Source: Nitrospirota bacterium (lineage in GTDB: Bacteria; Nitrospirota; UBA9217). Taken from it: DNA of 64,000 nt. Positions 1 to 64,000 of the stretch are shown here, in pieces. The stretch is from contig DASPSR010000045.1 in assembly GCA_035623825.1 (NCBI GenBank), positions 23,630-87,629 on the forward strand. The letters run 5' to 3'. The notes beneath the pieces were generated by a model, which made no database searches, had not been told where the DNA came from, and worked only from the letters and a program-made list of their open reading frames with translations. Both the position numbers and the translations under genes were made by a program. The stretch's first letter is position 1, and the number at the start of each line of letters is the position of its first letter.

Positions 1-25
1 GGTGAAACTGAAAGATAAGGCCTGA
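1..25 (+). CDS. 3' end of a CDS entering from upstream (...VKLKDKA*)
   Basis: Frame 2 reads GTG AAA CTG AAA GAT AAG GCC TGA; too short to identify. Confidence 0.35.
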
Positions 26-274
26 CCGCTGTGCGGCCGAACCGTTAAAGAACCGCCGGAGAGAAACGGCCTAAAAGGCGTCACTCGCAACCGCTAAATT
101 TACACAGAGGCGCTAATACTTTAATCTGATTGACATTTTTGGTGACCATGCTATTTTTAGACAGGGTGGTTTCTAAACTGTCTAAAATCAGTCGCATAGT
201 TCCGGAAAATATTCATGAGCGGACATCTTCGCGGGCTTAAGGGGAAATAAGCAGGTCATAACGGAGGAAACATC

Positions 275-1194: not shown

Positions 1195-2553
1195 TCACGC
1201 CGTCTCTATTCTGAGCTTCTTCAACTTTCTATACAGTGTGGCAAGGTCGACGCCGAGCTTGTTCGCAGTAGTCTCTTTGTTCCCCTTGTTTTCCGTCAGA
1301 CTGCGGCGGATGTAATCCCTCTCAAAGGTATCCAGGGCCTGGCGGAGTGACGATGTAGAAACTCCCTCGACATCCAGGGTCCTGAACTTGTCCGGCAGGT
1401 CGTGGATGGTTATCACTTCTCCGTCGGCGAGCACGGTTGCCCGTTCTATCGTGTTCCGGAGTTCCCTGATGTTCCCCGGCCAGTCGTAGGCGAGAAGCGC
1501 TTGCGTGGCCTCGTAGTCGATATCCTTGATGCTCTTTCCGGCCTCTTTCGAGAAAATCTCCCTGTAATGCTTTATCAGAACGGGGATGTCGTCTCTCCGC
1601 TCCCGCAGCGCCGGCATCCGGATCTCGATGACATTGAGCCGATAGTAGAGGTCTTCCCGGAAACGGCCTTTCTTTACCCGCTGCATGAGATCGGCATTCG
1701 TGGCTGCGATGATCCTGACATCGACGGTGATGACACGGGTATCTCCAACGGGCGTCAGTTCCTTTGTCTGGATCACATGGAGCAGCTTTACCTGGAGGGC
1801 GGAAGGGAGCTCGCCGATCTCGTCGAGGAAAAGCGTGCCGCCGTTCGCCATGGTGATGAGGCCCTTTTTGTCGTCGACGGCAGAGGTGAACGCGCCTTTC
1901 TTATGGCCGAAAAGCTCGCTCTCAAGCAGGTTTTCGGGGATTGCGCCGCAGTTGATGGCGATGAACGGCTTGTCCTTGCGCGCGCCGCCCTCGTGGATGG
2001 CCTGGGCCACGAGCCCTTTGCCCGTGCCGCTATCACCGGTGATCAGGATGTTGCTCTTGCTCGGAATGACCTTCTCCATCACACTGAAAACCTTCTGCAT
2101 GGCTTCCGAACTGCCGATGATGTTGGTGAACGCCGCCGGCCGCTGGCTGAGTTCCTGCCGCAGGATCTGGTTTTCCATCTGGAGATCTCTGCTCTTCAAG
2201 ATCCTTTTGATGGTAAGCCTGATCTCATCGTTGATGAACGGTTTGGTGATATAATCAGCGGCGCCCGCCCTCATGGCTTCAACGGCCGAGCCTACCGAAG
2301 CGAATGCCGTCATCATGATCACCGCCGTCTCCGGGCTTATCTTTTGCGCCTCCCTCAGGACCTCGAACCCGTCCATTTTTTCCATCTTGATATCGGTCAT
2401 GATGATATCGAAGTTCTCCTTCCGGATGCGTTCGATCGCCTGTTCGCCGTTATAACACTCCTGGACATTGTAACCCTCTTTTGTCAAGAGGATCCTTAGT
2501 GCCATGCAGATGTCTTTTTCATCGTCCACGACCATTATGTTCGGTTTTTGCAT
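1195..2553 (-). CDS. Sigma-54-dependent response regulator (NtrC/AtoC family)
   Basis: Receiver domain, GDSGTGKG Walker A, ESELFGHKKGAFTSA loop, Fis-type HTH ATLYRKL. Confidence 0.95.
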   Translation of the reverse strand: MQKPNIMVVDDEKDICMALRILLTKEGYNVQECYNGEQAIERIRKENFDIIMTDIKMEKMDGFEVLREAQKISPETAVIMMTAFASVGSAVEAMRAGAADYITKPFINDEIRLTIKRILKSRDLQMENQILRQELSQRPAAFTNIIGSSEAMQKVFSVMEKVIPSKSNILITGDSGTGKGLVAQAIHEGGARKDKPFIAINCGAIPENLLESELFGHKKGAFTSAVDDKKGLITMANGGTLFLDEIGELPSALQVKLLHVIQTKELTPVGDTRVITVDVRIIAATNADLMQRVKKGRFREDLYYRLNVIEIRMPALRERRDDIPVLIKHYREIFSKEAGKSIKDIDYEATQALLAYDWPGNIRELRNTIERATVLADGEVITIHDLPDKFRTLDVEGVSTSSLRQALDTFERDYIRRSLTENKGNKETTANKLGVDLATLYRKLKKLRIETA

Positions 2554-2571
2554 GATGGCTGCTCCCTTGTC

Positions 2572-4809
2572 TCATCCGTTCTCTACGGGAAGTATGACGG
2601 TAAACACGGTCCCTTTCCCGGTTTCGCTCTCTACCTTGATATCGCCCTTGAACCGTCTGACTATGCTGTAGCTGACGGAAAGGCCGAGGCCCGTGCCTTT
2701 GCCTGCTTCTTTGGTCGTGTAAAAGGGGTCGAATATCTTCTCGATTTCGCGCTTGGCCATGCCGATGCCTGTATCGGCGAACTCGACCATGACCGAGTTG
2801 TGCCCCTGGTCGTCTGCTCCCCGGTGCGTGGAAACGCTCAGCTTGCCCCCGTCAGGCATCGCGTCGAACGCGTTCAGAATGATATTGATGAATACCTGCG
2901 ATATCTGGCCTTCGTCAATCATGATCTTCGGCAAGGCGGGATCCAGGACGACGCCGATCTCGATGGAGCTTTTCATGCGCTTGTCAAAGCGCATCAGGTC
3001 CAGCGTCGAATTCACCACGTCATTGATCTGCACTGATTTTATGTTCAATGCGTCGGCTCTGGAAAAAGTTGACATCCGCCTCACGATGTCGGTGATCCTC
3101 TGGATGTGGTTGTTGATGATGTCGAGGCTGTTCTGCGTGAACTCATCCGTCGCCATCTCCCGCAGGAGCTGGGCGAAGGTGGAGATGGAGGTGAGCGGAT
3201 TGCCGATCTCGTGGGCAACTCCCGCAGCGAGCCTGCCGAGCGCCGCGAGCTTCTCGGAGTGAAGCACCTGCTGTTCGAGCTTCTTTGCAGTGGCCGTGCC
3301 CCTGTCGACCTTGTCCTCGAGCTCCACGGTATACTGTTTGAGCGCTTCTTCAAGCTCGACGCGCTTGGAGACGTCGTTGCTCGCGATAAGGATGCCGGGC
3401 GTCTTCCCGTCGAGCAGGAGCGGGCTGATGTTCATGCTAAAATATACCGGTGAAACGAGAAGCCCCGTTATCTTGTAGTCCCTGATCTCGAAGCTGCGGC
3501 CCGCAAGGGCCTTCTGGAATATGGCCTCAATGGGGATCTCCTCGTACGGGGGAAGCTTGTCCGGGAAGAGGGATAATAACGGCTTGCCGACGATGTCCTT
3601 TTTGGAACGGCCGAAGGTCCGCGCCTGGGCGGAGTTCACGGTCCTGACCACCATATCCTTGTCGACGACCATGAGGTTCGTTTTTGTTTTCTCGATGATA
3701 TTCTCCAGAAAGTCTTTTGAAATTTCGATCTCACGTTCGAGTCTGCGCCGGTTCTCGAGATGCAGGGCCTTTTCTTCCGCCTGGATCTTCTTTTTGTAGT
3801 TGATGACCGTGGCTCCCGAAGCCAGCAGGGTGGTAAAAAAGATGGAGACGATGAGAAGAGAGTAAAATCGGCGGCTTTTCTGCATGAGCGCTATCACATC
3901 CGAATAGGGCGCCGAGACCACGACGATCCATGACCTGTGCGCGATCGAGAACCGATAGAATCCTGCAAGCTTGTTCTCACCGCCCGGGGCCTCGTAGGAA
4001 CCGAAGGTTTCTTGTGCGCCCTCGATCATCTTCTTTTCAGTGTCGAAGGACTTATGGCACTGGAAACACGATTTCCCGGTCTGATAGAGGTTCTTCCCGA
4101 CCATCTGGGGCTGGGTGGGGTGATAGAGCAGGGTCCCGTCGCTGTCCATCATCCAGGCATAGCCGCGCGTCCCTGATTTGACAGGTGCAATATATCTCTG
4201 GGTGATGCCTTCCAGGGAGAGCACGGCAAGAACGACGCCGCCGAATTCAGGGACGGGCACATTGGGCAGATGATGGTAGATTGGGGTTGCGATGATGAAC
4301 CGCTTGGACTCAGGCCGCGGGTCCGTTGACGGGAGCAGGTCGGTGATCAGCTTCTCGCTTCTGGGGAGAACCCGGGCTCTTTGAAAATAATCTGTCGTGG
4401 ACAGGTCCACTCCCTCCCGGCCGGGGGACGCGCTGTCGTAGATCACAATGCCGTGCTTGTTAAGGATGCGGATGGAGACGAGCACCTCGTTCTGGATGTT
4501 GAAGTTCATTGCCTCCAATACGGTACGATTCTGGCTGCTCTGATTGATTCTTTGAATTTCGGGCATTCGGGAGATCACGAGGATATCCTTGTACGTGTTG
4601 TCGATGAAGCTCTCGATGTTCATCGCAACCTCGCGGGCGAGCAGCAACTGTTGCTTGTTGAACTGCTCGGCCATTTCCTCCTGAAGCGACTGGTGAAAGA
4701 ACTGCCCGAGGATGATGATGAAAGAAAGCACGACGAGGAGGGACAGAATGAATATGGTGGGCGTAAACAGCCCCCTCTGCTTAAGGGAACGAGTAAGGCT
4801 TTGAAACAT
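2572..4809 (-). CDS. Sensor histidine kinase: TM, dCache with CXXCH, TM, PAS, HisKA, HATPase
   Basis: GYAWMMDSDGTLLYHP Cache signature, CFQCH, H-box AHEIGNP, FDPFYTTK, GTGLGL. Start moved from 4992 to ATG 4809 because a promoter lies just upstream. Confidence 0.9.
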   Translation of the reverse strand: MFQSLTRSLKQRGLFTPTIFILSLLVVLSFIIILGQFFHQSLQEEMAEQFNKQQLLLAREVAMNIESFIDNTYKDILVISRMPEIQRINQSSQNRTVLEAMNFNIQNEVLVSIRILNKHGIVIYDSASPGREGVDLSTTDYFQRARVLPRSEKLITDLLPSTDPRPESKRFIIATPIYHHLPNVPVPEFGGVVLAVLSLEGITQRYIAPVKSGTRGYAWMMDSDGTLLYHPTQPQMVGKNLYQTGKSCFQCHKSFDTEKKMIEGAQETFGSYEAPGGENKLAGFYRFSIAHRSWIVVVSAPYSDVIALMQKSRRFYSLLIVSIFFTTLLASGATVINYKKKIQAEEKALHLENRRRLEREIEISKDFLENIIEKTKTNLMVVDKDMVVRTVNSAQARTFGRSKKDIVGKPLLSLFPDKLPPYEEIPIEAIFQKALAGRSFEIRDYKITGLLVSPVYFSMNISPLLLDGKTPGILIASNDVSKRVELEEALKQYTVELEDKVDRGTATAKKLEQQVLHSEKLAALGRLAAGVAHEIGNPLTSISTFAQLLREMATDEFTQNSLDIINNHIQRITDIVRRMSTFSRADALNIKSVQINDVVNSTLDLMRFDKRMKSSIEIGVVLDPALPKIMIDEGQISQVFINIILNAFDAMPDGGKLSVSTHRGADDQGHNSVMVEFADTGIGMAKREIEKIFDPFYTTKEAGKGTGLGLSVSYSIVRRFKGDIKVESETGKGTVFTVILPVENG

Positions 4810-4814
4810 GAAGT

Positions 4815-4844
4815 AATTTACCGCTAAAACATGAACGATGTCAA
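4815..4844 (-). promoter_or_regulatory. Sigma70-like promoter for the HK-RR pair
   Basis: TTGACA-18nt-TAAATT on the minus strand, 5 nt before ATG 4809; no SD. Confidence 0.55.
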
Positions 4845-5087
4845 GGAGGAAAACCGGGACGAAGGACGAAAGAACCTGTTCCGTCTGGTCTCCGTCGAAG
4901 GACAGAAGAGCATTAGGAGGGAATACGGCAGAGTCCTCCAGATGAACGGGAAGCGCATGGTCGCAAACAGGAAGTGACGCATTTCCCCCCATGGTGATCT
5001 ACTGCTACAGGCACAGGTATTTGGCCAGGCTTTTAAGAACAGTTTGATCATAAGCAGGGAAGACGGAGGGGGATGTGGCTCTCTGGG

Positions 5088-9466: not shown

Positions 9467-10870
9467 GTGCAGGACAGGTATTTTGATGTCGACTCTCGTT
9501 CAGTCTTGGCGAGGGCGTTAAGGAACGGAGGTGAATATGCAGATCTGTTCCTTGAGCGGAGTACGCCTTTTTCCATCATGTGCGAGGACGGCAGGATCGA
9601 GAAGATCCTTGCCGGTCTTGATTGCGGTGTCGGTGTTCGGCTGATATTTGGAGCGCGGACGGCCTATGCCTATTCAAATGATATCTCTCTTGCATCCCTT
9701 CTGGCTCTCGCCGATGCGGTCAGCCAGGCAGCTGCAGCTGAACGCAATGCTTCGCATGCTTCTGTCATAAACCTTACCCGAAAAGATACTCACGTCGATT
9801 TCCCCATCGAGAAGTCGCCGGAAGCGGTCAGCACCGATCAAAAGGTCGGCATGGTGCTCCAGGCGAACCGCGTCGCCCTTTCCATAGATTCCCGCATCAG
9901 GCAGGTGATGGTCGTGTACCGGGAGAACCGTCAGCAGGTGCTTATAGCAAATTCCGACGGGTTCGTTGCAGAAGACGAACGCAGGCACCTCACCGCGGTT
10001 GTCCACGTGGTGGCGGCAAGCGGTGAAGTCGTGCAGACGGGATACGAGCCGGTCGGCGGGTTTGCCGGCATGGAACTGTTTGATCGTGAACCGCTTGACA
10101 AAGCGGCAGAGATCGCGGGCCGGCGCGCTGTCATGATGCTGTCAGCCCGGAAGGCGCCTGCCGGGAGGATGCCGGTGGTCCTGTCGTCTTCGGCGGGGGG
10201 GACGATGATCCACGAGGCGGTCGGCCACGGGCTTGAAGCGGATCTGGCGCAGTCCGGTCTCTCCGTGTATTCGAACAAGATCGGCCAGCGGATCGCTTGC
10301 CCGCTCATCACCGTGGTGGACGACGCTACGCTCGCAGGGAAACGAGGTTCGTTCCGGTTTGACGATGAAGGCACCGAGGCCGAGCGAACCGTGCTGGTGG
10401 ACAAAGGCGTGCTCAAGACGTTCATGTATGACAGGCTGACGGCCATGAAGGATGGGGCGCGCTCTACGGGTAACGGGAGACGTGAATCCTACAAGAATCG
10501 GCCAATCCCGCGGATGACGAATACCATGATAGCTCCGGGGACATCCGATCCGGGAGAGATCCTGCGCACTACATCGAACGGCCTGTTCGTAAAGAAGATG
10601 GGCGGCGGTCAGGTGAACACGGTGAATGGCGATTTCGTGTTCGAGGTGAGCGAAGGGTACCGGATCGAGAACGGTACGATCGGCGAGCCGGTGCGCGGCG
10701 CCACGCTCACGGGAAACGGTCCGCTGGTGCTCATGTCCATCGATATGGTCGGGTCCGACCTGGGATTTTCCATCGGCACCTGCGGCAAGGACGGCCAGGG
10801 CTCTCCGGTAAGCGATGCCCAGCCTACGCTCAGGATCCCGGAGATCACCGTCGGCGGAGAAGTGGCGTGA
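9467..10870 (+). CDS. tldD: TldD-family metalloprotease
   Basis: HEAVGHGLEAD, DDEG, STGNGRRES, PIPRMTNT, GTCGKDGQ. Confidence 0.92.
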   Translation: MQDRYFDVDSRSVLARALRNGGEYADLFLERSTPFSIMCEDGRIEKILAGLDCGVGVRLIFGARTAYAYSNDISLASLLALADAVSQAAAAERNASHASVINLTRKDTHVDFPIEKSPEAVSTDQKVGMVLQANRVALSIDSRIRQVMVVYRENRQQVLIANSDGFVAEDERRHLTAVVHVVAASGEVVQTGYEPVGGFAGMELFDREPLDKAAEIAGRRAVMMLSARKAPAGRMPVVLSSSAGGTMIHEAVGHGLEADLAQSGLSVYSNKIGQRIACPLITVVDDATLAGKRGSFRFDDEGTEAERTVLVDKGVLKTFMYDRLTAMKDGARSTGNGRRESYKNRPIPRMTNTMIAPGTSDPGEILRTTSNGLFVKKMGGGQVNTVNGDFVFEVSEGYRIENGTIGEPVRGATLTGNGPLVLMSIDMVGSDLGFSIGTCGKDGQGSPVSDAQPTLRIPEITVGGEVA

Positions 10871-31146: not shown

Positions 31147-32439
31147 GTGTCTGATATCAAGAAAATGTACAAGACCATTATGGCTGATAATTTTCCGCCT
31201 GAAATGACCGTTTGGTTCGGCGATCAGAAGCTCGTGTACAGAAAAAGGGCATGGAAACTGTCCGACGAAACCACGGGAGAACTGATCGAGAAGGGCCTTC
31301 GGTACGGAGAGAATCCAGACCAGCAGGCAGCCATGTACGAGCTGGCCGCCGGCAATCTCGTGCTTGCCGGCGTCAAATTTATCGAACCGGGCAACGGGCT
31401 CGTGAGCAGCATCACCGAAGAGCAGATGATCCAGGCAGGCAAGCACCCCGGCAAGACGAACTTCACGGACCTCGACAATGCCCTCAACATCCTGAAGTTC
31501 CTAATGGATCGTCCGGCAGCCGCCATCATGAAGCATAATAACCCCTGCGGCGTCGCCCATGGCGGGACCATTGCGGAGGCCTACGACAGGGCGAACATGG
31601 CCGACCGCATCGCCGCCTTCGGCGGCTGTCTGGCCGTCAACAGGCCCATCGACAGGCAGACTGCTCAAATGGCGAGCGCAAACTACCTGGAAGTCGTTGC
31701 TGCGCCGGATTATGAGGACGGCGCGGTCGAAATTCTCTCAAAGCGGAAGAACCTTCGCATCATTCGCCTCGAGAAGATCAGTGAGCTTGCGAAATACCGG
31801 GACAAGAACTTTGTCGAGTTCAAAGCACTCATCGACGGCGGCCTTATCGTCCAGCAGTCACAGGCGAATAAGATAAGAAGAAAAGAGGATTTCCAGGAGG
31901 CGAAGACTACATACAAGGGGAAGGAATATAAGATTGAACGGAGACCGACCAACGCGGAGTATGACGACATGCTGTTCGGCTGGAATGTGGAGCAGGGGAT
32001 CACATCGAACTCGGTCATCTATGTGAAGGACGGTGTCACCGTAGGCATCGGGACGGGCGAGCAGGACCGGGTCGGCGTGGCCGAAATAGCCATCTTCAAG
32101 GCCTATACGAAATATGCCGACGCCCTTTGCTTCAGGAAGCATGGCATCCCGTACAAGCAGTTCGAACTCGAGGCGAGCCAGGGGAAAAGGGATAAAGCCG
32201 CTCTCCGCGAGATCGACGAATTGACCAAGAAGGACAAGGGCGGCCTCACCGGGTCCGTCATGGTCTCGGACGCCTTCTTCCCGTTCAGGGACGGTGTTGA
32301 TGTGGGTATCAAGGAGGGGATATCGGCGATCGTTCAGCCCGGCGGCTCTGATCGCGATTTCGATGCCATCACGGCCTGTAACGAGGCCAATCCTAAAGTG
32401 ACGATGGTCTTCACCGGTCAGCGGGTGTTCAAACATTGA
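31147..32439 (+). CDS. purH: PurH-like AICAR transformylase domain protein lacking the MGS-like N-terminal domain
   Basis: LRYGENPDQ, KHNNPCG, SDAFFPFRD, QPGGS, FTGQRVFKH; GGAGG RBS before GTG 31147. Confidence 0.8.
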   Translation: MSDIKKMYKTIMADNFPPEMTVWFGDQKLVYRKRAWKLSDETTGELIEKGLRYGENPDQQAAMYELAAGNLVLAGVKFIEPGNGLVSSITEEQMIQAGKHPGKTNFTDLDNALNILKFLMDRPAAAIMKHNNPCGVAHGGTIAEAYDRANMADRIAAFGGCLAVNRPIDRQTAQMASANYLEVVAAPDYEDGAVEILSKRKNLRIIRLEKISELAKYRDKNFVEFKALIDGGLIVQQSQANKIRRKEDFQEAKTTYKGKEYKIERRPTNAEYDDMLFGWNVEQGITSNSVIYVKDGVTVGIGTGEQDRVGVAEIAIFKAYTKYADALCFRKHGIPYKQFELEASQGKRDKAALREIDELTKKDKGGLTGSVMVSDAFFPFRDGVDVGIKEGISAIVQPGGSDRDFDAITACNEANPKVTMVFTGQRVFKH

Positions 32440-32518
32440 TCAGTTGAACGATCAAGACGATCCCCATCTCCGATCATTCGGGTCTGCACGGATAAAGGCG
32501 GAGGAGGCCGGAGGCCTT

Positions 32519-56985: not shown

Positions 56986-58437
56986 TCATTTATATTCCAA
57001 AACGTCAACCTTCAATTTTCCCACGAGCCTCAGGATGTCCGACTGTCGGTCGAGGTTGCCTGCGATGAACCGGATATGCGTGGCGTCGGCTGGGAACTGG
57101 TTGAAAGTCGGATCAATGGCAGTCCAGCGGCCGAGCCACACTTCGGGCCAGGCATGATAATAGAACCCGTCCCGCATGTACACGATGCCCGCGGCCATGC
57201 GTGTCGGAATGCCCGCGGCGCGCGCGAGGGCCGTATACAGCGTCGTGTGTTCGTTGCAGTCTCCCACTCGCTGGCTCAGGACCTCGATTGCGCTCGGGAT
57301 GCTCACGACCGGTTTTTTCTCGATCGCGCTGTAGACCCATTCGTTGATCTTCCTTGCTGCCTGCAGCGCATCTTTTTCTCCTGAGAGGATCTTTCCTGCT
57401 TGATATTTTATCCTTTCGTCGTCGCTCTGGATCAGGGCCGTCGGCTGGAGCGATTCATTCCGGTCTTTTCCCGCGTAGGGGAGAACATAGGAAACGGGAT
57501 TATCCTGAACGTGCACCTCGACGATGTCCTCTTTGAATATCTGCCGGTCGCCGTCGAGATCGAAACCCTGGAACGGAGCCCCGCTGAGCCTTGCTTTGAG
57601 GTATTTTGTCTGATCGGAATTGTCCACGTGATTAGACTGGATCATCACGAGGGCGATGATGTCCACCGCGGGGCCTTTCTTGTCCCTCTTTAAGGCCTCG
57701 GCCATACTCTCTTTCAGCAGCACGTAGCCGAGCGGACTTTCTTCCTTAATGGTATCCCCATCCTCGGTGATCCAGGAAAAGGCCTCGAGGCCCTGATAGG
57801 TTTCCTTTAGTTTATATACGGTCTGTTCCTTGTCGCCGATCTTGATGCTTTCCTTGGACTCGATGGAGATTGAGGTATCTTCCATGTTCATGGTGGCGGG
57901 GTTGAACACGGGAAAGCGGTATGTTTTGCCCGGTTCCAGACCGAGGAGAATGAGAGCGGGGATTATGGTCGGCGAAAGGTGAGGCGGCTCCTTGAGCCGG
58001 ATGCGCTCCTTGCGTATCTGGCCGCCGGTCAAGATATCCAACACGAGCTGATTGCCGACGACGGCCCCCTTGATCGTCATGGAACTTGTATCTGACTGCA
58101 TGGTGAAGTCGAAGTACTTGAGCAGGAAGTTCTTGGTGGTGTAGCTATTGATGACGGTCTTGACGTGCTGCAACGAGCCAAGGACGAGAATATCAAGCTC
58201 CGACTCTTCCGTCAGACGGTAGGTGTCTGCCTCGCGTACGACCCGGGAGTGAGCATATCCGATTTTTCGGCCCTGCTGATAAATGCCTGACCATTCGTCT
58301 TTGGCGTGTACACCTTCCTCGGTTACGACATCGAGTGCGATGACCGCTGAGGGACGGAGGTAGTTGCGTTCGATGAGCAGCCCCAGCATCACGAGCCAGA
58401 AGATGAGGATGCTCAGTTTAATCAGTCTCTGCATCAT
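56986..58437 (-). CDS. Membrane-anchored transglutaminase-like protein
   Basis: N-terminal TM; GDCNEH, YHAWPEV, DPT catalytic triad. Confidence 0.9.
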   Translation of the reverse strand: MMQRLIKLSILIFWLVMLGLLIERNYLRPSAVIALDVVTEEGVHAKDEWSGIYQQGRKIGYAHSRVVREADTYRLTEESELDILVLGSLQHVKTVINSYTTKNFLLKYFDFTMQSDTSSMTIKGAVVGNQLVLDILTGGQIRKERIRLKEPPHLSPTIIPALILLGLEPGKTYRFPVFNPATMNMEDTSISIESKESIKIGDKEQTVYKLKETYQGLEAFSWITEDGDTIKEESPLGYVLLKESMAEALKRDKKGPAVDIIALVMIQSNHVDNSDQTKYLKARLSGAPFQGFDLDGDRQIFKEDIVEVHVQDNPVSYVLPYAGKDRNESLQPTALIQSDDERIKYQAGKILSGEKDALQAARKINEWVYSAIEKKPVVSIPSAIEVLSQRVGDCNEHTTLYTALARAAGIPTRMAAGIVYMRDGFYYHAWPEVWLGRWTAIDPTFNQFPADATHIRFIAGNLDRQSDILRLVGKLKVDVLEYK

Positions 58438-58629
58438 AGCGGGATACGACAAAAGGTTAATTTCTTCGTAATGTTAACCAGAAATCGGATCATTGTCAAA
58501 TGAGCCCGGTGATTCCAGACGCCTGCTATACAATAATAATGCCGTAATTTCATGGATATAGAAGAAATTTTGCCTTGACTTTGAAATGTTTATCCTCTAT
58601 ATTATGCTCCGTGGGCGGAGGAGGTGTCT

Positions 58630-58920
58630 ATGACGAAGGCCGATATCATCTCGGAAGTTTTTGATAAAACAGGCTTGCCGAAGCAGGACGCGGAAGAACT
58701 GGTCGAGATGATTCTGGATTTAATCAAACAGATCCTGAAGGAAGGCGAGACCGTTAAATTATCGGGTTTCGGTAACTTTGTTGTCCGTAAGAAGAATTCA
58801 AGAAAAGGCCGCAATCCCAAGACCGGCCAGGAAATTGAGATAACACCGCGAAAGGTTGTCAGTTTCAGGCCCAGCATGATTTTCAAAGAACATGTCATTG
58901 AATCCCCCAAAACCGAGTAA
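58630..58920 (+). CDS. ihfA: Integration host factor alpha
   Basis: MTKADI, VKLSGFGNF, GRNPKTG; followed by merR and tRNA-Pro. Confidence 0.92.
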   Translation: MTKADIISEVFDKTGLPKQDAEELVEMILDLIKQILKEGETVKLSGFGNFVVRKKNSRKGRNPKTGQEIEITPRKVVSFRPSMIFKEHVIESPKTE

Positions 58921-59215
58921 GCTTTTTTACCGGATCGGTGAAGTGAGCCGTCTGACGGGGCTCGAACCGTATGTGCTCCGCTATTGGGAAACTGAGTTTC
59001 CTCAGCTCAGGCCCAACAAGGGCAGGTCAGGGCAGCGCCTTTACAGTAAAAAGGATATAGACAACATCCTCCACATAAAACAGCTGCTCTATAAGGATGG
59101 TTATACCATCGCCGGAGCGAGAAAGAAGCTGAACGGCAAAACGGGTCCGGATGTTGAAGCTGCCATAGAGTCGGCCAAAAAGGAATTGAGGGAAATACTC
59201 GAAATACTGAAATAA
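58892..59215 (+). CDS. MerR-family regulator
   Basis: YRIGEVS, VLRYWETEFP, LLYKDGYTIAGAR. Confidence 0.92.
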   Translation: MSLNPPKPSKLFYRIGEVSRLTGLEPYVLRYWETEFPQLRPNKGRSGQRLYSKKDIDNILHIKQLLYKDGYTIAGARKKLNGKTGPDVEAAIESAKKELREILEILK

Positions 59216-59316
59216 TAATAATAATGTATATCGCAATTCAATGTTCCAGCGAAATCCTTGACCTGATTTAAACGGTCATTGAAGACTCCATGGAATTTTG
59301 AATTTACTTTTAAGTT

Positions 59317-59393
59317 CGGGGCGTGGCGCAGCCTGGTAGCGCACTCGTTTGGGGTGCGAGTGGTCGGCCGTTCAAATCGGCTCGCCCCGACCA
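59317..59393 (+). tRNA. tRNA-Pro (anticodon GGG)
   Basis: Cloverleaf: CGGGGCG/CGCCCCG acceptor stem, loop TTGGGGT, TTCAAAT T-loop, encoded CCA. Confidence 0.96.
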
Positions 59394-59398
59394 ATTTT

Positions 59399-59439
59399 AA
59401 GCCCATAAACATCAATGTTTATGGGCTTTTTTATTTTTT
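59399..59439 (+). terminator. Terminator after tRNA-Pro
   Basis: AAGCCCATAAACA-TCAA-TGTTTATGGGCTT plus T-tract. Confidence 0.85.
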
Positions 59440-59543
59440 AAGGGTATAACCCTTCATGGTTAAGGGGGCGAAAAGGGGGCAATATTTTTTAGACAGCCGG
59501 AAAATCCAGCGTAGTCTCTTAGAGTAAGATGCTAAGATACCAT

Positions 59544-59582
59544 TTGACAAGTGACGTATATTAAATTATATTATATACGTCA
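59544..59582 (+). promoter_or_regulatory. TA promoter with overlapping inverted-repeat operator
   Basis: TTGACA-17-TATATT; IR TGACGTATAT (59552-61) / ATATACGTCA (59573-82). Confidence 0.7.
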
Positions 59583-59596
59583 GGAGGGAATTAGTT

Positions 59597-59845
59597 ATGA
59601 GCACAAAATTGACATTACGGCTCGATGATAAGCTTATCAATAACGCTAAGAAAGCTGCACGTTCACGCGGTGTGAGTCTATCGAAGATGGTTGGCGATTA
59701 TTTCAACACCATTTCATCACAGCAAAAAAAAGAAATTCAAGAATCCCCTGTTCTCTCTGAGATATCGGGAATTCTCCCGCCGAGAACCGATGTGAAGAAA
59801 CTTATCAAGAGCTACAAAAGGCATCTTGAGGAGAAGTATCGGTGA
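59597..59845 (+). CDS. RHH-type antitoxin (DUF6364-like)
   Basis: TKLTLRLD...AK..A...GVSLSKMV, YKRHLEEKY; overlaps the PIN gene. Confidence 0.85.
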   Translation: MSTKLTLRLDDKLINNAKKAARSRGVSLSKMVGDYFNTISSQQKKEIQESPVLSEISGILPPRTDVKKLIKSYKRHLEEKYR

Positions 59846-60258
59846 AAACGGTTCTCTGCGATATCAACTTTTTTCTCGATATTTTCTTGAAGCGGGAACC
59901 ATTTTATACGGCTTCTGCGCGACTGTTCAAGAAAATTGAGGAAAAGGAACTGAAAGGTTACGTGTGCGCACTCAGTTTTCCCGTGCTGTTCTATCTGCTC
60001 TCCAAAGAACTACGCAGAGATCGCGCGATGAAGACGCTAGAGAAAATCAGGATCATTTTTCGCGTTGCGCCGGTCGATGAAAAAGTAGTCGATCTATCGC
60101 TGGTCTCCAGTTTTAAGGATTTCGAGGATGCTGTTCAGTATTATTCGGCCCTACAGGTTAAAGCCGATTGCGTCATCACACGGAATAAGGCAGATTATAA
60201 TGAGAGAGCAATCTCGGTTTTGACGCCGGAGGAATTTCTTTCTACCTTAGAAATGTAG
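59842..60258 (+). CDS. PIN-domain toxin
   Basis: VLCDIN..LD, DFEDAVQY, ITRN..DY, VLTPEEF. Confidence 0.88.
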   Translation: MKTVLCDINFFLDIFLKREPFYTASARLFKKIEEKELKGYVCALSFPVLFYLLSKELRRDRAMKTLEKIRIIFRVAPVDEKVVDLSLVSSFKDFEDAVQYYSALQVKADCVITRNKADYNERAISVLTPEEFLSTLEM

Positions 60259-60566
60259 TGGCTTATTCTTTTTGCAGTATTGATTCCTTCCTCTACTCTT
60301 GGAGTTGCCACACATCTAAACAAGCAACAATACAACAAGTATGCACGCTGCATATCCGAGATGAATGCGGATTTCCGGATGAAATATGGTAATCGCGATT
60401 CTTCGAAATCTTATCAACATCATCCTGGAATCCGCAACAGTTGTCATTATTCAATATTGTATCTTTTATCCAGAAATCGGTGGGTAGTAAAAGACTATCA
60501 GGAAACTGCCTTTGCGAAATCAATGATCACTCGTTCATGTAGTTCATAAGCAATATAATCAGTTAT

Positions 60567-60588
60567 AAAAAACCCGTCCCTAGCGGGC
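60567..60588 (-). terminator. Probable terminator downstream of the selenoprotein gene
   Basis: Minus strand GCCCG-CTAGGGA-CGGGT followed by a T-tract. Confidence 0.5.
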
Positions 60589-60669
60589 GTCTTACTGATT
60601 ACCGGAACCTCTTTCCTGCGACTCAGGCTCTGCGCCTTGCTTAGAACGGGTCATTAAGCATACCTTCTT

Positions 60670-60686
60670 CCCAGCTGACCGCCGGG
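60670..60686 (-). promoter_or_regulatory. SECIS-like element for Sec69 (in the 3' UTR)
   Basis: CCCGGC-GGUCA-GCUGGG, loop 18 nt after the UGA. Confidence 0.7.
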
Positions 60687-60689
60687 TTC

Positions 60690-60905
60690 TCAAACGCCTC
60701 AGGTACCACCGTAGCCTACGGTAACCTTTTCACCCTCCACTATCACCGGGACATCTCTCTTCCCCTTTGAATAGGAAAGCATTTCATCGAGCCTTGTAAC
60801 GTTTTTCTTCACATCATAATACTCGACCCTACCTCCGAAAACCTCCCGGGCCTTCTTCGTGTAGGGTCAACCCGACACCCCATATATTTTGATTTTTTCT
60901 CCCAT
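60690..60905 (-). CDS. Glutaredoxin-like selenoprotein with two Sec (U13, U69), UXX*-type
   Basis: AAAGGAG RBS; MGEKIKIYGVSG-U-PYTKKAR...RDVPVIV...VGYGGT-U-GV*; a SECIS-like hairpin after each UGA. Confidence 0.88.
60825..60868 (-). promoter_or_regulatory. SECIS-like element for Sec13
   Basis: GACCCUAC/GUAGGGUC lower stem, CGAAGA/UUUUCG and GCC/GGU upper stems, loop CGGGA 18 nt after the UGA. Confidence 0.75.
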
Positions 60906-61348
60906 GATTTTACTCCTTTCCACCTGCACTGGTATTCGATCATCCTTTACAATTATATTATAGCTCTTCTTGACATTCTCCTAAGAAATATCTCTTCCGC
61001 CTGTTTCAAAGTCTGAAATTATTCGATGGCCCTCCAACCTTCCCGCGATATCTGGATCTTTTGCTATACTATTGTTTATTAGAGGTTTCGTGAGAAGCTG
61101 CTGAAAAAACGGGCTTTACCAGTTCGGCAACTGTGTCACTGTTCCCTCTCAGGGGTCATGGGGAGCACGGGGTGCTGTCAGACGAAAGGAACTGAGGAAG
61201 GGAGATAGGGAAACCAAAGTTGTATCCATTGTGTGAATGTTGACCGGCTTAGTACTGCACTTCTTGCCAGCAATCCTGCTCTTTGCTTCATGTGATGGCA
61301 GACGCAGACTTTAGAGATAATTATTTTCAATAGAGGAGGCGATGCATT

Positions 61349-61558
61349 ATGAAATACGGTGCGAGAAATAACATCAAAGCGACAGTAACATCGGTAAAAA
61401 AAGGCGATGTCATGGCGTTGGTCAAATTCAAAGTGACCACCCCTCCCGAGATGGCTTCAGTACTTACCACCGAATCCGTCGAAGCCTTGGAACTCAAACC
61501 GGGCGATGCAGTTCAGCTGATTGTTAAAGCCATTCACGTATTACCCATAAAAGAGTAA
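61349..61558 (+). CDS. TOBE/Mop molybdate- or tungstate-binding protein
   Basis: GARNNIKATVT, SVLTTESV..LELKPGD.V...VKA; GAGGAGG RBS. Confidence 0.9.
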   Translation: MKYGARNNIKATVTSVKKGDVMALVKFKVTTPPEMASVLTTESVEALELKPGDAVQLIVKAIHVLPIKE

Positions 61559-61798
61559 ATGCCAGAGCTGTATTACTGTATATAGAAAGCCTGGGAATAA
61601 ACCCGCAAGGGTCGCTATCACTGGAAGGGAAGCTGGAAATTGTCATTTTCCGGTTATGACCTTTGTCGAGACCCTCATCCTAAACTTCGCAAGGCTTGCC
61701 TCTAGCAGTTACTGCATCCTTCAACAAAGACGCACGTCTAGCAACGGAATGGAGTGTGTATTTCTGTATGGTCTCCCCCCGAAAAAGTGGACACCTGG

Positions 61799-62690
61799 TT
61801 AAGTTTCTTTCAGGGTCTTTTCGTACTGTTCCGGGCTCTTATATCCCAATCCCGAGTGTTTTCTGACCCGGTTGTAGAAAACCTCTACATACTCAAAAAT
61901 GCTTAGTTTAGCTTCTTCCTGCGTTCGATATCGTTCACCGTGGACCAGCTCCCGTTTGAGCGTGCTGAAGAAAGACTCCATGTAAGCATTATCATAACAA
62001 TTGCCTTTTCTACTCATGCTCGGCGTTATGCCGTAGCGCCTCAAGAGCGCCTGGTATCCATAACAGGCGTACTGCCTGCCGCGATCAGAATGATGGATCA
62101 GACCCATGGTCGGCTTTTCTCTCGTCACAGCCTGCTTGAATGCTGCGGTTGTCAGATCCTCCGATAGCTGGTTCTTCATGGACAGCCCGATGATCTTTCT
62201 GCTCTGCACGCTCATGACCGCCGACACGTAGAGCCAGCCCTCCTTGGTCGGAACATACGTGATATCCGATGCCCAAAGAGGACCTTTATGGTTACGATCG
62301 ATCAGCAAATTGGCAGCCAGCGAATAGTTATGTTTTGACTCCGTGGTAGCCTTCCTGAACCTCCTCTTTAATTCCGCCCGAATCCCGTTATCTTTCATGA
62401 TCCTGGCGATCCGGTGATTCCCCCATCGGGTCCCCTGGTCGCGAAGCTCTGCCGTTATCCTGGGGCTACCGTAGATCCTTCTGCTTTTCTGATGAATCTC
62501 TTTTACGCGGTCCAGGAGCTGCTCGTTCTCTTTCCACCGTTTTCCCGGTTTTCGATTCCTCCACGCATAATAACCACTTCGAGATACTTCCAAGACCTCG
62601 CACATCTTCGTAAGCCGGTGGATCCCCCGGTGTCTTTCAATGAACAGGTACTTTACCAGTTCCGTTTGGAAAACACGCCCAAGGCTTTTT
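61799..62690 (-). CDS. IS3 transposase OrfB (DDE), reached by -1 frameshift
   Basis: WASDITY, HHSDRGRQY, GNCYDNAYMESFF; frame open back to the A7G slippery site at 62685-62692. Confidence 0.92.
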
Positions 62691-62943
62691 TTAAAATATC
62701 CCGCTCTTCCTTGACATCATCCAATTCTTTCCGGAGACGTCTTATCTCTGCGTCTTCGGGTTTCACGCCCTTACCGGTAAAAGCTCCATCTCCTTCCATT
62801 TCGAACCGTCTTCTCCATTGATGAATCAAATTCGGATGGACATCGAGATCTCGGGCCACCTTCTTGACAGGTATGCCTTTCTCCAGTACCATGCTTACTG
62901 CATTTCTCTTGAATTCATCATTGAACTGCCTTTTCGCCCCCAT
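62653..62943 (-). CDS. IS3 transposase OrfA
   Basis: EFKRNAV...VARDLDV..NLIHQWR, EERDILKKA; GAGGAGG RBS. Confidence 0.92.
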   Translation of the reverse strand: MGAKRQFNDEFKRNAVSMVLEKGIPVKKVARDLDVHPNLIHQWRRRFEMEGDGAFTGKGVKPEDAEIRRLRKELDDVKEERDILKKALGVFSKRNW

Positions 62944-63157
62944 TTGGACCTCCTCTCGCAATTGTACAACTATTTGAGGTGTCCATCAAATCGGGGGAGG
63001 CTCAGTATGAAATGTTGGTGGCGCTATTCGTCGAAACCATATTAAAATTCCTTGTTACATCGCAATTTTTCACGTTCGTTAGAACGGCATCTTTCAACCC
63101 GAAGTTTTGCATACCCCAATATGGGAAAGAATAAAAAAACTTGCTCTTTTGGAGATA

Positions 63158-63184
63158 ATAGTATATATTAAAAATATATACTAT
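63158..63184. promoter_or_regulatory. vapBC operator palindrome
   Basis: ATAGTATATATT-AAA-AATATATACTAT just upstream of the RBS. Confidence 0.7.
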
Positions 63185-63199
63185 AAGAGGTGGTGCGAT

Positions 63200-63427
63200 A
63201 TGAAAACAGCTAAACTGTTTAAAAACGGCCAAAGCCAAGCTGTTCGTTTGCCTAAGGAATTCCGGTTCGAGGATGACCACGTGTTCGTTAAGAAATCCGG
63301 AAATGCTGTAGTACTTCTTCCAGCTAAGAATTCTTGGGACGTCCTAATACACAGCTTAAATAAGTTTTCCAATGACTTTATGGCTGAGAGGGAACAGCCG
63401 GCCATCCAAAAGCGGGAGACCTTTTGA
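63200..63427 (+). CDS. vapB: VapB antitoxin (AbrB/MazE fold)
   Basis: MKTAKLFKNGQSQAVRLPKEFRF; start moved to ATG 63200. Confidence 0.93.
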   Translation: MKTAKLFKNGQSQAVRLPKEFRFEDDHVFVKKSGNAVVLLPAKNSWDVLIHSLNKFSNDFMAEREQPAIQKRETF

Positions 63428-63828
63428 TGAAGTATTTGCTCGATACTAATATTTGCATTTACCTCATCAAGCAGAAACCGCTCAAACTACTGAAGCATTT
63501 CAAGTCCCATAAAGTTGGCGACATCGGTATTTCCTCTATAACCCTCGCGGAGCTTCGTTACGGCGTATCGAAAAGCCAGCATGTAGAGAAAAATCGTCAG
63601 GCTTTAGATGAGTTTATCCTTCCTCTTGAGATTGAAGACTTCGATGAAAAGGCAGCTGCCGAATATGGAAATATGAGGGCTGACCTAGAAAAAACAGGAA
63701 AACCTATTGGGTCTATGGATATGTTGATCGGTGCTCATGCCCTTGCTCTCGGTGTTACGCTCGTCACCAATAATATTAAAGAGTTTAAGCAGATAAAAGA
63801 CCTAAAAGTCATTGATTGGAGCTCATGA
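63424..63828 (+). CDS. vapC: VapC PIN toxin
   Basis: YLLDTNICIY, ELRYG, DMLIGAHA, LVTNNIKEF. Confidence 0.94.
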   Translation: MMKYLLDTNICIYLIKQKPLKLLKHFKSHKVGDIGISSITLAELRYGVSKSQHVEKNRQALDEFILPLEIEDFDEKAAAEYGNMRADLEKTGKPIGSMDMLIGAHALALGVTLVTNNIKEFKQIKDLKVIDWSS

Positions 63829-63921
63829 TTATCGGTGAGCCCTTCTTCCGTGCTACAACTACTAATATAAACGCGCTAAATATTGTTACAATTTCGCTGG
63901 ATTTATGCTATACTGGGAGGC

Positions 63922-64000
63922 ATGAATACCTCCCCTTTAAACCCCGATAAAGCATCGAAAGAACAGTTATTGGCGTTAGCCGAGAAATTGCCCGGTGCCT
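63922..64000 (+). CDS. 5' end of an unidentified CDS (MNTSPLNPDKASKEQLLALAEKLPGA...)
   Basis: TGCTATACT extended -10 and GGAGG upstream; frame open to the window end. Confidence 0.5.
   Translation, partial: MNTSPLNPDKASKEQLLALAEKLPGA

Follow-up and report, generated by a model that had tools for sequence, protein, structure and literature searches.

A probable two-selenocysteine UXX-star family 1 gene carried as an accessory copy in a tRNA-Pro-linked insertion of a Nitrospirota genome

The gene and the variable region around it

The window, by which we mean the whole 64,000-nucleotide stretch of Nitrospirota DNA that was analysed, carries on its reverse strand a short gene for a glutaredoxin-like protein that is easily overlooked. 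The features of the locus are listed in Table 1. When TGA is translated as selenocysteine (U), codons 13 and 69 are the sole TGA breaks in a 71-codon frame, and the frame contains no frameshifts. A first-pass annotation of this DNA had read the frame in the same way and the reading, which ends in UGV, is exact. The AAAGGAG Shine-Dalgarno-like sequence (60919-60913) and the ATG at 60905 named in that annotation are both present, and GGAGG-like sites occur at the equivalent place in relatives. A promoter consensus scan upstream of the gene found nothing; TATAAT-like hexamers were seen at 60962-60952, by eye only. The terminator-like hairpin downstream was found by folding to be part of a long structure (z -3.1).

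Table 1 Features of the UXX-star locus and of the variable region that contains it (window coordinates).
Feature	Coordinates	Strand	Basis and remarks
tRNA-Pro (GGG)	59317..59393	+	Insertion point of variable region; ARAGORN, Rfam
Low-GC variable region holding the gene	59394..64000	.	Runs to contig end; Pfam, GC, absence in G001/G002
DUF6364/PIN_3 pair	59597-60258		In variable region; Pfam
556-bp cassette	60419..60972	-	Gene with its 5' leader, the two SECIS elements and the 3' region; blastn vs L060, 94% identity
Terminator-like hairpin and T run	60565..60588	-	~100 nt past stop; consensus match only
SECIS-like element 2	60670..60686	-	Wholly in 3' UTR; 6-bp stem, loop GGUCA
True stop codon, itself TGA	60690..60692	-	6 nt past Sec UGA
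UXX-star family 1 selenoprotein CDS	60693..60905	-	71 codons, Sec at codons 13 and 69; TGA=U translation, NF041114, PF00462
UGA codon 69 (predicted Sec)	60699..60701	-	GGTUGV-stop, three residues from C-terminus; invariant in 23/23 relatives' genes
SECIS-like element 1	60824..60869	-	Within CDS; lower stem includes UGA13; upper stem 60855-60849/60843-60837, loop CGGGA 60848-60844
UGA codon 13 (predicted Sec of UPYT motif)	60867..60869	-	Aligned to first Cys of glutaredoxin CPYC
ATG start codon	60905-60903	-	Read from sequence
Shine-Dalgarno-like AAAGGAG	60913..60919	-	7 nt 5' of ATG; read from sequence
TOBE protein	61349-61558		In variable region; Pfam
IS3-type orfA/orfB	62961-61799	-	In variable region; Pfam
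MazE-like/PIN pair	63107-63828		In variable region; Pfam

Standard ORF calling misses the gene, as had been supposed: translation table 11 gives only a 37-aa piece and an out-of-frame 44-aa piece. The entry for the locus in the protein collection is likewise a 43-aa fragment (P0004); the search of that collection was based on a word index and returned 3 matches only.

Against NF041114, "UXX-star selenoprotein family 1" (cut-off 72), the translated protein scores 103.1 bits and matches profile positions 1-70 of 70, which shows that the family name given in the first-pass annotation was correct. In the whole-genome NF041114 scan the window copy scored 89.4 bits with 2 TGA. PF00462 (Pfam) is matched at 30.1 bits (cut-off 22.9), and its alignment, together with profile alignments to solved glutaredoxins, places U13 on the first Cys of CPYC, T16 on the second Cys and V52-P53 on the cis-Pro motif. 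This agrees with the UxxT active site and cis-Pro VP described earlier. The solved glutaredoxin chains compared are 82-154 residues long, and in the best matches the aligned part of the query goes no further than residue 66; the window protein stops soon past the conserved Gly, where glutaredoxins continue. The classical dithiol CxxC site is absent from the window protein, which has UPYT with T16 invariant in 23/23 relatives' genes. Curated glutaredoxin equivalogs all scored below cut-off (TIGR02181, 27 vs 90; TIGR02196, 35.4 vs 88.55; TIGR02180, 18.9 vs 87.25).

The locus is very probably a genuine two-Sec UXX-star gene. Since this kind of protein has already been curated by NCBI (NF041114), the kind is not new and the gene is an annotation gain, not a discovery. 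NF041114 itself lies within NF041212, "Uxx-star family glutaredoxin-like (seleno)protein", and the window gene is a member without structural difference: both have ~70 aa, a glutaredoxin fold, a Sec three residues from the C-terminus and a second Sec at the active site. The window copy, as a second and accessory one, does not have the neighbours found beside this lineage's core copy.

The first-pass annotation had also described the gene as island cargo. This description is supported, though an integrase was not found. The region that begins at the tRNA-Pro has a GC content of 41-46%, against ~55% upstream and a genome value of 53%, and contains an IS3-type transposase and two toxin-antitoxin pairs by Pfam. 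In the same-genus genomes G001 and G002 the variable region is absent, and what comes after the tRNA-Pro is sequence homologous to G000 from C9:32472 onward. Partial copies of the tRNA-Pro 3' end occur at C9:9548-9640 (94.7% over 94 nt) and C9:32335-32391 (91% over 57 nt). Contigs C42 and C9 are probably joined through the island; the window's contig ends at base 64000. No integrase appears among the Pfam matches for window 59394-64000 or C9:1-32123, the stretch between the contigs being unseen. A contig from run X8 joins 60292 to 61675, skipping 1382 bp, and with 26 nt on one side it is too weak for a claim of presence/absence polymorphism.

The cassette that contains the gene is shared with L060, an unrelated Nitrospirota MAG whose flanks match nowhere else in this genome. 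Compared with L060, the ORF differs at 5/213 positions and the flanks differ at 26/308 (about 8-9%). What the window holds is a second, accessory copy of the gene, borne by a small cassette within an insertion linked to tRNA-Pro. A reading of the 556-bp unit as an integron cassette (attC) was rejected, with no core sites found by eye.

Conservation of the two UGA codons and their hairpins

Relatives of the gene were collected as the 23 over-cut-off NF041114 genes from 22/41 related genomes. Two in-frame TGAs are present in 21/23 of these genes, and the other two combine Cys13 with a Sec near the C-terminus. All 23 end in U-x-x-stop, so that the two-residue tail past the second Sec, which had been singled out beforehand as a check, is conserved throughout. 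The positions C/U13, P14, T16, V52, P53, G64, G67 and C/U69 are invariant across the 23-row alignment. Contig C53 of this genome holds another copy, which has TGA at both equivalent places and ends UGV-TAA.

A wider sample gave a similar picture. Codon 13 is TGA in 65, TGT in 8 and TGC in 7 of 80 named homologous loci, a set found by a single-protein query and biased to sequences sharing query peptide words such as PVIVEGEK. The terminator is itself TGA in 6/23 relatives and 43/78 named loci. Regex classification of the best 150 database representatives, which left 22 without the VP motif and 7 long proteins unclassified, yielded 7 all-Cys forms ending C-x-x. P0017 is one example of an all-Cys homolog. 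A further 96 of the best 150 "end before or without C", as read from protein sequences only, in which TGA status is not readable. Cys/Sec exchange is seen at both sites among homologs, a check that the first-pass annotation had proposed. A tree of 91 rows leaves the deep forks without resolution and no donor is named; the 12 rows left out comprise the long-tail subfamily plus L105 and L134, both of them cut off by the ends of their contigs.

Each UGA is followed by a hairpin. With +1 set at the U of each UGA, element 1 has an upper stem at +15..21/+27..33 and the loop CGGGA at +22..26, and element 2 has a stem at +16..21/+27..32 with the loop GGUCA at +22..26. The G-containing loop reported to start 18 nt downstream of each UGA was confirmed with that spacing at both sites, and the second hairpin begins 3 nt after the stop codon, hence past the final stop as claimed. 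The 46-nt structure of element 1 folds at -23.3 kcal/mol (z -4.0), the upper stem alone being weak (-5.5 kcal/mol, z -0.88); element 2 folds at -10.1 kcal/mol (z -2.65).

The proposed fit to the bacterial SECIS model was upheld by the register of the hairpins, which is the same at both UGAs and is shared by homologous loci. Within the 80 named loci the loop after UGA13 starts at the identical offset in 47/65 sites, compared with 8/400 random windows. For UGA69 the loop starts within -1 to +2 positions (0-based index 20-23) in 70/78 sites, compared with 55/400 random windows. Across the 23 genes, 84.1% of cells in the element 1 upper stem are paired, vs 20-62% in shifted registers. The conservation of element 1 is confounded by the conserved KAREA coding sequence.

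Element 2 shows 95.1% of cells paired in alignment A1 (MAFFT, 3' UTR), where 3/23 rows (G029, G038 and G030) are misaligned and counted as gaps, their hairpins being visible by eye. In the covariance-model alignment (A4) pairing reaches 97.8%, with compensatory changes in 6/6 pairs, and the covariance model places 36/38 matches at the expected site over 784 kb. No Rfam SECIS family was matched at E<=1 in window 58000-64000, the hits being limited to the tRNA and, below threshold, a trpB motif.

Neighbourhood of the core copy and proposed redox role

In Nitrospirota the core copy of the gene lies in a conserved module. An ECF sigma/anti-sigma pair comes first, followed by the UXX-star gene itself, a hydrolase of the isochorismatase family and an AhpF-like PDO-thioredoxin reductase (PDO-TrxR) fusion. 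The ECF sigma/anti-sigma pair is divergent, and the fusion is described as its neighbour. In this genome the fusion is a 545-aa protein encoded at G000 C53:63494-65128. The isochorismatase-family gene and the fusion stand beside the UXX-star gene in 16/23 relatives' loci and in 4/80 named loci. TIGR03140 spans residues 9-530 of the fusion (296 bits), TIGR02187 residues 8-211 and TIGR01292 residues 231-527, all below the curated cut-offs, and the fusion carries CPYC and CATC motifs. Seven genomes (G008, G010, G013, G020, G021, G024 and G036) have the fusion without an over-cut-off UXX-star gene, and the reductase partnership is not strict. Pfam matches for window 59394-64000 include no isochorismatase or PDO-TrxR neighbour of the window's own copy, and outside Nitrospirota the family-1 genes have neighbours of mixed kinds.

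The module recalls the AhpF/AhpC and PDO-thioredoxin reductase systems, in that the gene beside the core copy has AhpF architecture and places what would be a dedicated NAD(P)H-driven reductase next to a small redox client. The client here would differ in being a Grx-like diselenol protein, not a peroxiredoxin, and the partnership is suggested by gene neighbourhood only.

A literature search found no experimentally known function for the UXX-star family. A 2026 review calls the role unknown and cites Haft & Tolstoy 2025 (mSystems) for the UXX-star families. Identity as a two-Sec UXX-star gene combined with a redox role, leaving the diselenide step aside, is likely.

The locus is probably a functional gene that encodes a small cytoplasmic glutaredoxin-fold selenoprotein translated from the ATG at 60905. 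SelB and tRNA-Sec would recode both UGA13 and UGA69 to Sec, with a separate hairpin guiding each event, and the third UGA, 6 nt on and out of register with the hairpin, would terminate the chain. Judged from sequence, Sec is probably inserted at both UGAs. In the glutaredoxin active site (UPYT), Sec13 would take the place of the nucleophile, with an invariant Thr standing where the resolving Cys usually is, and Sec69, on the glycine-rich C-terminal arm (GYGGTUGV), would serve as its resolving partner. This arrangement would give a redox centre based on a long-range diselenide, with a selenenylsulfide taking its place in the Cys13 forms. For the core copy the AhpF-like PDO-TrxR fusion would be the obvious candidate reductase. 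A U13-U69 diselenide mechanism is consistent with the conservation pattern, and we put its chances near, or a little under, one in two.

Mammalian thioredoxin reductase offers a partial precedent. It has a C-terminal Sec arm (GCUG-stop) in which the partner of Sec is the adjacent Cys, and it relies on the eukaryotic SECIS machinery. A role in passing electrons between the tail and a buried redox centre, in either direction, is ascribed to it. Both it and the window protein have Sec near the C-terminus on a glycine-rich flexible tail and a SECIS past the stop codon. The two differ in fold and size, and the partner proposed here is 56 residues away.

SelL and other UxxU proteins (Shchedrina et al. 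2007, as cited in PMC2398784) reportedly contain two Sec for which a diselenide has been proposed or shown, and a UxxU Prx-like 2 is described in PMC2398784. Like the window protein they place two Sec in one thioredoxin-fold redox protein; the SelL pair lies within one UxxU motif, whereas Sec here stands at residues 13 and 69, with a separate SECIS for each. The Clostridium selenoprotein glutaredoxin, reportedly of the UxxC type (Kim et al. 2011, as cited in the review), has one Sec and keeps the resolving Cys. It has in common with the window protein the glutaredoxin fold and a Sec at the N-terminal active-site position, but in the window protein Thr (UPYT) replaces the resolving Cys and a second Sec lies on the C-terminal tail.

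The main competitor to a catalytic diselenide is that the selenols are ligands for a metal or metalloid (e.g. arsenite or mercury), or that the protein is a selenium/sulfur carrier. In favour of such a role, several loci place a related long-tailed subfamily (CPFC or UPFC, with C-terminal GGTUxV) close to ArsR regulators and 24-45 nt downstream of ACR3-type arsenite carriers, and TerB neighbours occur in 3 loci. Family-1 genes themselves, however, have no consistent metal-resistance neighbour among 130 flanking ORFs. A flavoprotein of the thioredoxin-reductase type adjoins the Nitrospirota core copy, an arrangement that speaks for redox cycling, and the fold and active-site position are those of thiol-disulfide oxidoreductases. 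We consider the ligand or carrier role unlikely.

Sec decoding in the genome and implications of the locus

The Sec machinery that the first-pass annotation had proposed to look for was recovered in part. The genome encodes SelD, itself Sec-containing (GAGUACK site), as well as three FdhA-like genes, each broken by a single in-frame TGA, of which the best scores 1394 bits; selA, selB and tRNA-Sec were not found in the assembly, which is 89.65% complete. An assembly gap was examined by synteny. The flanks of the sel locus in G001 and G002 map to the interiors of G000 contigs and not to their ends, so a simple gap at the syntenic place is unsupported.

These absences, together with the synteny result and the position of the gene within horizontally acquired DNA, are what would be expected if the gene were a non-expressed acquisition or a relic in an organism that has lost its Sec insertion machinery. 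Against this, tRNA-Ile, tRNA-Phe and a complete tuf gene are likewise missing from the incomplete assembly, and at least six genes, including SelD and the 1394-bit FdhA, need Sec decoding. Among relatives, same-genus genomes included, selA is over cut-off in 27/41 and selB in 28/41, and tRNA-Sec is present in 18/25. The ORF is moreover better conserved than its flanks, and RNA-library sequence covers the gene: a metatranscriptome contig (335 nt, word depth 44) spans 60611-60921 with 12 differences and keeps both TGAs. This RNA evidence consists of one assembled contig from one run, belonging to a variant that is 96% identical, and DNA can occur in RNA libraries; for RNA run X10, depth does not rank expression and uncovered parts carry no meaning. 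Taken together, we judge a non-expressed acquisition or relic to be very improbable.

Two further readings are effectively refuted. That TGA is a sense codon for Trp or Gly in an alternative genetic code is suggested by homolog database entries with W at both positions (P0002, P0003, P0005 and others), some pipelines having translated TGA as W, but TGA is the commonest terminator of long open frames in the genome (704/1546), the same gene ends in TGA, homologs have Cys and not Trp at both sites, and a conserved hairpin follows each UGA. A chance frame or a decayed glutaredoxin pseudogene would fit the fragments given by standard ORF calling, but not the NF041114 score far over cut-off, the stops at identical positions in 21/23 relatives' genes and in the paralog, or the lack of further stops and frameshifts in the frame.

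The preferred reading remains a genuine two-Sec selenoprotein gene; none of the refuting conditions set out in the first-pass annotation overturned it. Natural proteins with two separately encoded Sec residues and a possible diselenide are rare. The arrangement UGA-N6-UGA, in which Sec is read at the first codon and the chain ends at the second, is found in 43/78 named loci and gives a natural illustration of how strict SECIS spacing is in deciding the meaning of UGA. For Nitrospirota, the module of the core copy supplies a concrete pair of reductase and client that is testable in vitro.

The presence of a 94%-identical cassette in an unrelated genome shows that such genes move horizontally along with their recoding signals. 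More tentatively, and with the odds against the proposal as a whole, family 1 may use a long-range catalytic diselenide (Sec13-Sec69), recycled in Nitrospirota by the AhpF-like PDO-TrxR fusion, and may travel between distant genomes as a self-contained cassette of ~550 bp. If this is true, any Sec-competent host could gain a two-Sec protein in a single step.

Reading frame and family assignment

The 71-codon frame of the window's gene is interrupted only by TGA at codons 13 and 69. The Shine-Dalgarno-like sequence, the start codon and both TGA codons reported in the first-pass annotation were all found in place, and the product translated with TGA read as selenocysteine (Sec, U) was identical to the one it described; the observation of a two-TGA gene is confirmed. 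The gene also escapes standard ORF callers, as had been proposed: table-11 calling returned only two pieces, one of 37 aa and one, out of frame, of 44 aa, and the protein collection holds only a 43-aa fragment (P0004).

Coordinates of the UXX-star gene and associated features (window positions unless a contig is named)
Feature	Position	Strand	Remark
Shine-Dalgarno-like AAAGGAG	60919-60913	-	Upstream of ATG 60905; read from sequence
UXX-star coding frame	From ATG 60905, 71 codons	-	Translation with TGA read as Sec
TGA codon 13 (Sec)	60869-60867	-	In-frame
TGA codon 69 (Sec)	60701-60699	-	In-frame
Terminator, third TGA	60692-60690	-	End of frame
tRNA-Pro(GGG)	59317-59393		1.3 kb from the UXX-star gene, which is downstream
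Conserved Nitrospirota module around core UXX-star copy	G000 C53:61707-65131 (L151:8227-12661)		

Profile searches were run on the protein with Sec read as Cys. The protein scored 30.1 bits against Pfam Glutaredoxin (cut-off 22.9) and, far more strongly, 103.1 bits over its full length against NCBIfam NF041114, "UXX-star selenoprotein family 1" (cut-off 72); the parent model NF041212 gave 74.7 bits (cut-off 66). Because both NCBIfam cut-offs were exceeded, the family name given in the first-pass annotation is right, and the profile matches place the gene in an already curated family rather than a new kind. Curated glutaredoxin equivalogs all scored far under their cut-offs; the protein is termed "glutaredoxin-like" here rather than a glutaredoxin. 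Profile alignment to solved glutaredoxins put U13 at the first Cys of CPYC, T16 at the second and P53 at the cis-Pro, in agreement with the earlier placement of the first UGA and cis-Pro. With the diselenide and a complete Sec machinery excepted, the interpretation as a two-Sec glutaredoxin-like gene is supported.

The available passages of a 2026 review (PMC13188914) describe UXX-star family 2 and a HUGP/GUXX-star fusion, credited to Haft & Tolstoy 2025, and call the UXX-star role unknown. NF041114 was not mentioned in the accessible portion of the Haft & Gwadz 2022 preprint. The literature search found nothing further on family 1 in accessible text, the term "UXX-star" being met only in PMC13188914.

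Conservation of the two Sec positions and recoding hairpins

A whole-genome scan of the source assembly (G000) located a second UXX-star gene, the core copy, at C53:62471-62674, with TGA at the same two places and the ending UGV-TAA; the window's copy is 59% identical to this paralog. Over-cut-off matches were present in 22 of 41 related genomes, giving 23 genes. Two in-frame TGAs occurred in 21 of these, while one of the other two encoded Cys13 with Sec69 and one Cys13 with a TGA just past the HMM match. All 23 ended U-x-x-stop (TAG 11, TAA 6, TGA 6), showing conservation of the short tail after the second UGA, and C/U13, P14, T16, V52, P53, G64, G67 and C/U69 were invariant in the 23-row alignment.

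Codon 13 was TGA in 65, TGT in 8 and TGC in 7 of 80 named loci from public genomes (Nitrospirota, Thermodesulfobacteriota, Brocadiales, Acidobacteriota, Pelotomaculum, Spirochaetota and others), a set biased by selection through peptide words shared with the query. Among 1.84 billion representatives, a profile search recovered 861 matches at E<=0.001. When the best 150 of the 861 were sorted by sequence pattern, 96 ended before or without a C-terminal Cys, most of them at ...GG[ST], the site where the UGA would be; 16 had been translated with TGA=W and showed W-x-x ahead of the end or of another W, 7 were all-Cys forms ending C-x-x, 2 had longer tails, 7 were long multidomain proteins and 22 were unclassifiable by pattern. 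Since TGT or TGC stands at codon 13 in 15 of the 80 loci and all-Cys C-x-x forms exist, Sec/Cys pairs occur at both sites, as expected if Cys homologs align with both UGAs. The two-residue tail is retained in the Cys forms too.

The hairpins proposed to follow each UGA at the same spacing, the second past the final stop, were recovered. Counting the U of each UGA as +1, the loops lie at +22..26 in both cases (CGGGA after UGA13, GGUCA after UGA69). Element 1, within the coding sequence, is a 46-nt bipartite structure with the UGA inside its lower stem (-23.3 kcal/mol, z -4.0); taken alone, the upper stem is weak (-5.5 kcal/mol, z -0.88). Element 2 has a 6-bp stem (-10.1 kcal/mol, z -2.65) and begins 3 nt past the stop codon. 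Pairing in the 23 genes reached 95.1% of 122 cells for the element-2 stem (three misaligned rows scored as gaps) vs 15-62% in shifted registers, and 84.1% of 138 cells vs 20-62% for element 1, the latter being confounded by coding constraint.

A covariance model of element 2, run over 784 kb from 81 sources, gave 38 matches at E<=1, with 36 at the expected site. In the alignment derived from this model, which is fitted to it and so biased toward the structure, 97.8% of 183 cells paired and both-side changes were seen in all six pairs (33 cells), a compensatory signal matched by 0 of 500 shuffles. In a simple hairpin scan of the 80 loci, 47 of 65 UGA13 sites had the loop at this spacing vs 8 of 400 random windows; after UGA69, 70 of 78 sites had a loop start within -1 to +2 of it (0-based index 20-23) vs 55 of 400 random windows, and the loop contained a G in 77 of the 78. 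Two codons past the Sec UGA, TGA also serves as the terminator in 43 of 78 loci and in the window's gene, so the same codon would be read as Sec or stop by its distance to the hairpin.

Sec decoding capacity and the window's extra copy

The first-pass annotation had looked to the genome for Sec machinery, and this expectation was borne out in part. The G000 assembly (3.24 Mb, 67 contigs, 89.65% complete) encodes SelD (375.7 bits), whose one in-frame TGA falls at the canonical GAGUACK site, and three FdhA-like genes with one in-frame TGA each (best 1394 bits); at least six genes require Sec decoding, both UXX-star genes counted. An alternative code with TGA as sense was excluded because TGA is the commonest terminator of long frames (704 of 1546). 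selA, selB and tRNA-Sec were not found in the 89.65% complete assembly. Among relatives, selA passed its cut-off in 27 genomes and selB in 28 (both of 41), and tRNA-Sec was present in 18 of 25. The three genes lie within ~8 kb of one another in the same-genus genomes G001 and G002, so a single missing stretch would take out all three; tRNA-Ile, tRNA-Phe and a whole tuf gene were also not found in the assembly. The flanks of the G002 sel locus, however, align inside G000 contigs C44 and C48 and not at contig ends, which counts against a simple gap.

GC around the window's gene is 41-46%, vs ~55% upstream and 53% genome-wide. Within this low-GC stretch lie two toxin-antitoxin pairs and the genes for an IS3-type transposase and a TOBE protein; the contig ends at base 64000. 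Upstream of tRNA-Pro, G001 and G002 are 80-82% identical to G000; directly after their tRNA-Pro comes sequence homologous to G000 contig C9 from base 32472 onward, with the low-GC region absent. Partial tRNA-Pro 3' copies occur on C9 at 9548-9640 (94.7%) and 32335-32391 (91%). By sequence comparison, the pattern matches tandem integration of one or two elements at tRNA-Pro; no integrase was found in the assembled parts of the insertion.

A unit of 556 bp (60419-60972) matches part of L060, a contig of an unrelated Nitrospirota MAG, at 94% identity, and on L060 the cassette adjoins a group II intron reverse transcriptase; the L060 flanks had no other meaningful match in G000. Differences numbered 5 of 213 positions in the ORF (2 synonymous, 3 not), 1 of 33 in the element-2 stretch, 6 of 67 in the leader, 8 of 95 in the 3' UTR and 12 of 146 beyond. 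Together these features bear out the earlier description of the gene as island cargo. The UXX-star copy of G001-G003 is syntenic with the core copy and not with the window's, which by this synteny is the extra copy. A 91-row tree joined the window's copy to L060 in a clade (100/94) outside the 65-row group holding the core copy and G001-G003; no donor is named because the deep forks are unresolved.

L060 also carries, at 2487-3074 (-) and 3945-4995 (-), an FdhA-like N-terminus ending ...NQARV and group II intron reverse transcriptase fragments. The Sec UGA of FdhA is typically found at the point where this N-terminus stops. The rest of the tRNA-Pro insertion, C9:1-32391 (L149, L150), would continue from the window's end at 64000, and the partial tRNA-Pro 3' copies on C9 form its boundaries. 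Its cargo at 10-32 kb looks like a corrinoid methyl-transfer cluster: a PAS histidine kinase and LuxR-type regulator, a URO-D-like methyltransferase, CobW, CbbQ with a VWA protein, two DUF2284 proteins, a B12-binding protein, RACo, CobT, two B12-radical SAM enzymes and a ThiC-like protein. At L150:5171-5434 (C9:24171-24434), a CGTC-containing Rdx/SelW-like ORF has a mid-domain non-TGA stop and is possibly a pseudogene.

The cassette is present in peat and wetland metagenome runs. One metatranscriptome contig (335 nt, word depth 44, one run) spans 60611-60921, starting 16 nt ahead of the ATG and reaching 79 nt past the stop, with 12 differences and both TGAs intact; this 96%-identical variant, seen as contigs only, gives a weak hint of expression. 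A ~95-nt repeat at 60332-60426 adjoins the cassette and recurs at G000 C45:8648-8742 (91.6%). In DNA runs, summed contig depth at 60327-60448 was 93-148 vs ~12-16 nearby, and many contigs break there. A contig of run X8, from a related population, joins 60292 to 61675, skipping 1382 bp with the UXX-star and TOBE genes; with 26 nt only on one side, this joint is too weak to establish presence/absence polymorphism.

Genomic neighbours and proposed function

Upstream of the core copy lie a divergent ECF sigma factor and zf-HC2 anti-sigma factor. On its own strand, an isochorismatase-family hydrolase follows 119 nt downstream, and the second gene downstream encodes a 545-aa AhpF-like fusion of a protein-disulfide-oxidoreductase domain (PDO; CPYC) and thioredoxin reductase (TrxR; CATC; TIGR01292, 323.8 bits). 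By tblastn, hydrolase and fusion flank the UXX-star gene in 16 of 23 relatives' loci, the sigma factor too in 14 of the 16, and among the 80 named loci both adjoin it in 4, each from Nitrospirota. Full-length fusion homologs occur in 24 of 41 related genomes, two of them (G008, G023) with an in-frame TGA; the link to UXX-star is not strict, since in 7 of the 24 no UXX-star gene scored over cut-off. For family-1 genes outside Nitrospirota, the 130 closest flanking ORFs were heterogeneous, and beta-CASP nuclease, rubrerythrin, TerB and NlpC/P60 neighbours each recurred within narrow clades only.

A leader motif, TGTATCG...GTTTACTTTTGCAC...TAAAATG followed by an A/T-rich -10-like box, is conserved between the ECF sigma gene and UXX-star, within 110 nt upstream of core copies (L021, L025, L027, L028, L031, L038, L039, L043). 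This motif is missing from the window's copy, which carries separate TATAAT-like hexamers.

The principal competing account of UXX-star function is the binding of a metal or metalloid, and we consider it unlikely. A passage to that effect on the UXX-star family appears in the available text of PMC13188914, and a related long-tailed subfamily (L114, L116, L117, L135, L136, L138; also L109, L125, L129, L131) is found 24-45 nt downstream from the gene for an ACR3-type arsenite carrier, near ArsR regulators and a DsbD/CcdA-like membrane protein. The active site of these relatives is CPFC or UPFC, and ~15 additional residues form a tail that ends GGTUxV.

We favor a thiol/selenol-disulfide oxidoreductase, which the protein probably is, with Sec13 as the nucleophile. 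The resolving partner may quite possibly be Sec69 on a glycine-rich C-terminal arm, not position 16, an invariant Thr. In glutaredoxins a conserved Gly motif flanks the active site, and it is this position, together with the conservation pattern and the fold alignment, that suggests the diselenide. The redox centre would then be a Sec13-Sec69 diselenide recycled by an NAD(P)H-dependent flavoprotein, which in the Nitrospirota lineage would probably be the neighbouring PDO-TrxR fusion.
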